A stretch of 64,000 nt of DNA from assembly GCF_003334315.1 (NCBI RefSeq), contig NZ_QOWR01000014.1; one strand, written 5' to 3'. Below are positions 63,611 to 64,000 of the stretch, one piece after another (position 1 is the first letter of the stretch; each line of letters starts with the position of its first letter). The stretch is from Escherichia coli. GTDB lineage: Bacteria > Pseudomonadota > Gammaproteobacteria > Enterobacterales > Enterobacteriaceae. The translations under genes were made by a program, and so were the position numbers. The notes beneath the pieces are model-generated. The model did not search any database and was not told the origin of the DNA. It worked only from the letters and a program-made list of their open reading frames with translations.

Positions 63611-64000
63611 GGTAATGACTCCAACTTATTGATAGTGTTTTATGTTCAGATAATGCCCGATGACTTTGTCATGCAGCTCCACCGATTTTGAGAACGACAG
63701 CGACTTCCGTCCCAGCCTTGCCAGATGTTGTCTCAGATTCAGATTATGTCGCTCAATGCGCTGAGTGTAACGCTTGCTGATAACGTGCAGCTTTCCCTTC
63801 AGGCGTGATTCATACAGCGGCCAGCCATCCGTCATCCATACCACGACCTCAAAGGCCGACAGCAGGCTCAGAAGACGCTCCAGTGTGGCCAGAGTGCGTT
63901 CACCGAAAACGTGCGCCACAACTGTCCTCCGTATCCTGTCATACGCGTAAAACAGCCAGCGCTGACGTGATTTAGCACCGACGTAGCCCCACTGTTCGTC
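63611..64000 (-). mobile_element. IS1-family insertion sequence, right end including the terminal inverted repeat; truncated by the window edge
   Basis: ggtaatgactccaacttattgatagtgttttatgttcagataatgcccgatgactttgtcatgcagctccaccgattttgagaacgacagcgacttccgtcccagcc matches the IS1 right end as I recall it; InsB C-terminus encoded on the minus strand. Confidence 0.9.
63626..64000 (-). CDS. insB: IS1 transposase InsB, C-terminal part (5' end lies outside the window)
   Basis: ...[96 protein letters not shown]; the reading frame continues open to the window edge. Several substitutions relative to the K-12 IS1 InsB I remember. Confidence 0.85.

Follow-up and report, generated by a model that had tools for sequence, protein, structure and literature searches.

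The right end of an IS1 element abuts a severed yabQ gene at the end of the analyzed window, a stretch of 64,000 nt of Escherichia coli DNA, and a common mosaic IS1, with ends of the IS1A type and an insB core of the IS1F/IS1X2 type, has very probably transposed here into the AT-rich 3' end of yabQ. The host is a K-12-like (phylogroup-A-type) E. coli. The coordinates of the features discussed below are compiled in Table 1.

Table 1. Features at and around the IS1 junction (window coordinates; L002 denotes the K-12 locus)
Feature	Position	Strand	Remarks
rluA, intact, left untouched by the insertion	62507..63166	+	0 nucleotide differences from K-12
Terminator-like hairpin and T-run between rluA and IS1	63216-63237		
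yabQ, 3'-terminal 37 nt with the stop codon, cut off by the insertion	63574..63610	-	K-12 yabQ, L002 3475-3633
Target-site copy GTCAGTAAT abutting the IRR	63602..63610	.	presumably one copy of a target-site duplication of 9 bp
IS1 right terminal inverted repeat (IRR) GGTAATGACTCCAACTTATTGAT	63611..63633	.	identical to the IRR of K-12 IS1A
3' part of insB (C-terminal 124 codons and stop codon of the InsAB' transposase), frame open	63626..64000	-	from translation
IS1A-type mosaic segment, element positions 1-107	63611..63717	.	0 mismatches to IS1A, 5 to IS1F
IS1F-type mosaic segment, element positions 108-390	63718..64000	.	33 mismatches to IS1A, 3 to IS1F

Few bacterial insertion sequences have been studied as thoroughly as IS1. 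The element is 768 bp long, contains insA upstream of insB, and duplicates 8 or 9 bp of its target upon insertion; InsA acts as a repressor of its own promoter, which is located in the left repeat of IS1, and a -1 frameshift at an A6C motif leads to the InsAB' DDE transposase (PMC12428005). In the window, positions 63611 to 64000 comprise the right-hand 390 nt of an IS1, which runs off the window end with its transposase genes on the minus strand. Thus, the window shows 390 of the 768 bp expected, and the left inverted repeat (IRL), insA, the frameshift site, and the second target copy would be located beyond position 64000, with insA and the frameshift site expected at about 64060-64330. The IRR represents the terminal repeat of about 23 bp that characterizes the IS1 family. 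It is 23 bp long and is the sole match in the 64-kb window when up to three mismatches are allowed; in a degenerate search, none of 100 shuffled sequences yielded a match. The insB frame matched the NCBIfam equivalog NF033558 ("IS1 family transposase") with 127.4 bits, at a cutoff of 100 bits, over profile positions 101-199 of 199, and Pfam DDE_Tnp_IS1 with an E-value of 1.1e-69 over model positions 8-131 of 131. Both matches place an IS1-type DDE catalytic domain, the InsB part of InsAB', in this frame. An earlier note, made from the sequence alone, had described an IS1 end with the C-terminus of InsB at this position, and the IRR, the open frame, and the two profile matches all bear this out.

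The element is not a canonical K-12 IS1 copy. Over 390 nt, without gaps, it differs from K-12 IS1A at 33 positions (91.5% identity), and its InsB at 9 of 124 residues, whereas canonical K-12 copies (IS1A/E, B/C, and D) are defined by at least 98.8% identity to the IS1A consensus (PMC12428005). That the copy deviates from the canonical K-12 IS1 had been stated in the earlier note, and the peptides quoted there for the window and for K-12 IS1A proved to be exact. However, the term "divergent isoform" that was applied to it is an overstatement, because IS1F is present in K-12 itself and is 98% identical, and because copies with 100% identity are widespread. Specifically, the identity to K-12 IS1F (NC_000913.3 4518472-4519239) is 97.9% over the 390 nt, and IS1F shares the InsB substitutions that the earlier note had pointed out. 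The two elements are nevertheless distinct in that element positions 1-107 of the window copy, including the IRR, are of the IS1A type, and in that InsB of IS1F contains a premature stop codon (W to *) and an S to L exchange, neither of which is found in the window copy. Conversely, the window copy has in common with canonical IS1A/IS1E the family, the IRR, and the first 107 nt, as well as, in its full-length relatives, the length and the gene layout, but all 33 mismatches and all 9 amino acid changes are confined to element positions 108-390. With 3 mismatches to IS1F compared to 33 to IS1A in this segment, and with 99.5% identity to a copy labelled IS1X2, the element belongs to an IS1F/IS1X2-type class, the name IS1X2 being taken from the PGAP label "IS1-like element IS1X2 family transposase" of this near-identical copy. 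The copy in question is located on pCP131-IncFIB (NZ_CP053722.1) and has 2 nucleotide differences over the 390 nt, and the C-terminal 124 residues of its InsB are identical to those of the window copy.

How the mosaic continues beyond the window can be gauged from full-length relatives. The relatives L005, L007, and L008 are 768 bp long, and L005, which is identical to the window copy over the visible 390 nt, is of the IS1A type again after about position 450. Accordingly, full-length relatives are about 95% identical to both IS1A and IS1F, the value for IS1F being this low because the insA half is of the IS1A type. In the full-length copies that are identical over the visible 390 nt, PGAP annotates a "programmed frameshift". 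The variant is anything but rare: among the matches listed, copies 100% identical to the fragment were found in at least 25 E. coli chromosomes or plasmids, 415 records contain an IS1 copy at least 99% identical to it, and identical or near-identical copies are present on plasmids of E. coli, E. fergusonii, Salmonella, and Shigella flexneri. Some IS1 is present in 4,968 of the 5,426 complete E. coli genomes, at a median of 10 places per genome. Non-consensus IS1 copies of K-12 have been reported to be almost inactive (PMC12428005), whereas IS1X2 has been described as active and present in multiple copies in clinical E. coli (PMC10569738). The window copy has a Trp at the position of the stop codon in IS1F and is identical to copies that occur in multiple copies elsewhere. 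Judged by these comparisons, the window IS1 is a known and common mosaic variant, and it is probably active, because the Trp codon is intact, identical copies are multi-copy elsewhere, and activity has been reported for the IS1X2 type.

The junction between IS1 and the chromosome is precise. On its reverse strand, NC_000913.3 122937-59243 matches the window collinearly with 99.7% identity, this match to K-12 ends exactly at position 63610, and the boundary 63610/63611 coincides with the first base of the IRR. Past GTCAGTAAT, K-12 reads TTGTTCAGCAG, whereas the window reads GGTAATGACTCC. K-12 thus reads through the site, in agreement with the earlier note, according to which MG1655 carries no IS1 at this locus, and the 9 bp quoted there as abutting the element are indeed GTCAGTAAT. 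In K-12, the break point is NC_000913.3 59242|59243, inside codon 41 of the 52-codon yabQ (59121-59279), that is, directly after position 3511 of L002, and the window from 63574 onward corresponds to K-12 yabQ. The copy had been placed just beyond rluA; it is downstream of that gene, but it begins 444 bp past the rluA stop codon, beyond the rluA terminator and a Tn5-like transposase pseudogene, inside yabQ. The transposase frame of IS1 has the same direction as djlA-yabP-yabQ and is convergent with rluA. No open reading frame of at least 20 amino acids extends across the visible junction. Insertion of IS1 is biased toward AT-rich targets, and the target is located within the 100-bp stretch of the spacer that is richest in AT, with a GC content of 0.30 compared to 0.53 for the window. 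Homology of targets to the ends of IS1 has been reported in the older literature; the target copy contains the heptamer TCAGTAA (63603-63609), which is also found near the left end of IS1 (...AAATCAGTAAGTTGGCAGC...), although a match of 7 nt may be due to chance.

The precision of the junction also bears on the assumption that it is an assembly artefact, caused by an incorrect join or a contig end at one of the repeated IS1 copies. IS1 is multi-copy, with the median number of places given above, and is a classic cause of assembly breaks, and the junction was found in no other genome. However, mis-joins usually fall inside a repeat, whereas here the junction is located exactly at the first base of the IRR beside an AT-rich target, as in a true transposition. 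We therefore consider an artefact to be extremely improbable.

Within its collinear part, the window departs structurally from K-12 only in the araA-araD intergenic region (56109-56289). There, an 85-bp repeat unit occurs as 2.1 tandem copies, K-12 having one copy fewer, and the number of units is not constant among relatives, as L019 and L022 show. The nucleotide differences are unevenly distributed. The genes rluA, polB, araD, araC, and yabI have no nucleotide difference from K-12, and 98 of the 187 differences are located in thiB-thiP-thiQ (47458-50709), where the divergence is about 3% and 20 amino acids are changed; the genes flanking this segment are identical to K-12. By its pattern of differences, thiB-thiP-thiQ clearly appears to be a recombination patch. 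The window alleles are common elsewhere: AraB was found in 2,027 and ThiP in 10,337 blocks of the collection.

The gene hit by IS1 appears to have been degraded before the insertion. In strain CFSAN061772, PGAP labels yabQ as a C-terminal fragment of the type III secretion (T3SS) effector EspY1, and in the related genome OZ249094.1 (L011 20770-21561), yabP and yabQ form a single ORF of 263 amino acids with a faint pentapeptide-repeat match; this fused YabPQ ORF had no meaningful match in NCBIfam. The K-12 genes yabP and yabQ (L002 3475-4280) thus resemble parts of an effector gene that has broken up. Because yabQ represents an EspY1 fragment and is one 263-residue ORF with yabP in a relative, the target of IS1 is, on the basis of these annotations, the tail of a decayed accessory gene. 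A second remnant is located on the other side of this tail. The plus-strand sequence at 63379-63557 is identical to K-12, and PGAP annotates it in K-12 and relatives as a truncated pseudogene with a frameshift ("transposase DNA-binding-containing protein"). One of its frames (...LVGDAHLGDPCPARRLASLASSLAHHAG...) presumably resembles the N-terminus of a Tn5/IS4-type transposase; a 47-residue peptide from the remnant had no meaningful match in NCBIfam. Thus, an older IS remnant adjoins the new IS1. In the earlier note, IS1 had been called the only clearly accessory DNA in the window; this does not hold, as both the yabQ tail and the transposase remnant adjoin it. Between the remnant and yabQ, beside the yabQ stop codon, there is a perfect palindrome with a 17-bp stem (GCTAAGGTTGAAGGGGC...GCCCCTTCAACCTTAGC, 63534-63573), which may serve as a terminator in both directions or derive from the end of an old element.

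To all appearances, the insertion is confined to the strain under study. With a 901-nt query across the junction, the junction was found in none of the 5,426 complete RefSeq E. coli genomes; at least 80% of the query was covered in six of them, in none collinearly, and these six are the carriers of the two other spacer insertions described below (four and two genomes). The closest relatives are particularly informative: OZ249094.1 (L011) and AP021892.1 (L014) have only 9-10 mismatches to the window over 20.7 kb and run straight through the site without IS1. The visible junction TTGCGTTGTCAGTAAT|GGTAATGACTCCAAC had no exact match in genome and metagenome contig collections, nor had the predicted far junction when a duplication of 7-10 bp was allowed, and the predicted YabQ'-IS1 fusion peptides (for duplications of 7, 8, 9, and 10 bp) had no exact match among 15 billion proteins. 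Among Shigella chromosomes, the species representatives likewise had no match to the junction. An origin from Shigella had been considered because the best listed identity was only 99.5%, and was rejected, as the two close E. coli relatives named above differ by only 9-10 mismatches over 20.7 kb. The value of 99.5% is a ranking artefact, because the difference in the 85-bp repeat splits the alignment; this splitting of the BLAST alignments hid the closest genomes in the ranked output. The proposal that the insertion is strain-specific is thus upheld across the 5,426 complete E. coli genomes and the near-identical relatives. Because it is absent from all of these genomes, including relatives only 9-10 mismatches away, the insertion seems, as far as can be tested, to be recent and private.

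The spacer between rluA and djlA (about 1.5 kb, AT-rich, and filled with pseudogenes) has received IS1 more than once. Two other independent insertions were found in it, both in the same orientation as the window copy. In strains B2, PSJ-14, STK39-3-E, and EC529, an IS1F-like copy, which is 98.7% identical to the window fragment, is located 9 bp after the rluA stop codon (L001 3077-3933). In two genomes, one of them strain 2018-01-1CC (L003 4217-4984), an IS1B-like copy, 91.8% identical to the fragment, is located in yabP. Both the sites and the isoforms differ from those in the window, and the spacer looks like a recurrent target of IS1. At a different locus, two records sharing the ThiP allele of the window, JENE03000001.1 (L016 1-239) and CP163700.1 (L021 1-603), have an IS1 beside leuL, at a place occupied by leuO in the window and in the other loci (around window positions 38400-39000).

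These copies are relevant for what may be expected beyond position 64000. Three other IS1 copies were checked for target duplications, and two of them, the copy in yabP of L003 and the copy in L005, are simple insertions with clean 9-bp duplications (CTCACCATC and AGTAACGGT, respectively). In the third, the B2 copy, IS1-internal sequence, that is, an extra partial IS1 piece, follows instead of a clean duplication, and the B2-type locus exceeds the length expected for a simple insertion by about 89 nt. The B2 example speaks for the alternative that the IS1 end in the window is the mark of a rearrangement. It could border an adjacent deletion or inversion, or it could form one arm of a composite transposon or island bounded by IS1, and in each case the sequence beyond IS1 would not be the rest of yabQ. 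IS1, including the IS1X2 type, generates large adjacent deletions that end exactly at the IS1 terminus (PMC10569738), and the visible part of the window element stops before its far side. On the other hand, two of the three copies checked are simple insertions, the window is perfectly collinear with K-12 up to the junction, and the essential gene lptD, about 2 kb beyond, limits the possible deletions. A rearrangement of this kind is therefore unlikely. It is similarly improbable that the IS1 end represents the edge of a composite transposon or accessory island in yabQ, or of a deletion or inversion by which the yabP-djlA side was lost or moved.

A further alternative is that only the right end of the element is present, as a truncated, dead fragment. 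Partial IS1 pieces do occur in E. coli genomes, for example beside the B2 copy, and the window includes no more than 390 nt of the element. However, the visible part has an open frame and an intact IRR and is 100% identical to full-length copies, and the IS1 is young, because close relatives have no IS1 at the site, which leaves little time for decay. A dead fragment is thus very unlikely, and both this possibility and that of an assembly artefact are less likely than a rearrangement.

The preferred reading, a simple insertion, fits with the exact junction at the IRR, the AT-rich target, the repeatedly struck spacer, and the 9-bp duplications found at two of the three other copies. In this case, a complete 768-bp IS1 would be flanked by a 9-bp duplication of GTCAGTAAT, and the insertion would have been made by the InsAB' DDE transposase, produced via -1 frameshifting between insA and insB. 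The element would extend to about position 64378 and end with ...AAGTTGGCAGCATCACC, followed by GTCAGTAAT and then by TTGTTCAGCAGTACTTTTTTAGTAGCAACT, with the rest of yabQ, yabP, and djlA. Given a complete element and a 9-bp duplication, the predicted YabQ' would consist of 43 native residues followed by TVMLPTY. Only the last 9-11 codons of the already fragmented yabQ would be replaced.

Because the replacement would be restricted to these few codons of a fragmented gene, an effect on the rluA or djlA neighbourhood, which had been suggested in the earlier note, is unlikely. A simple promoter scan revealed two promoter-like matches and no hybrid promoter across the IS1 junction; as both sites are located inside IS1, the candidate of a hybrid promoter spanning the junction was rejected. 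With a decayed yabQ as the target and with rluA and its terminator untouched, the insertion is most likely a recent, selectively neutral, strain-private event, neutrality being deduced from the annotation, and no phenotype is expected.

Events of this kind are already known and belong to the ordinary variation between strains; the site, in a pseudogene remnant, is new but otherwise unremarkable. The insertion is of little significance, given that the isoform is widespread and that yabQ is a decayed effector fragment without known function in K-12-type strains, and it is useful only as a strain marker against relatives that are otherwise almost identical in the region. Two known patterns gain a further small example: the repeated insertion of IS1 into the AT-rich spacer between rluA and djlA and, through the element itself, recombination between the IS1A and IS1F sequence classes.
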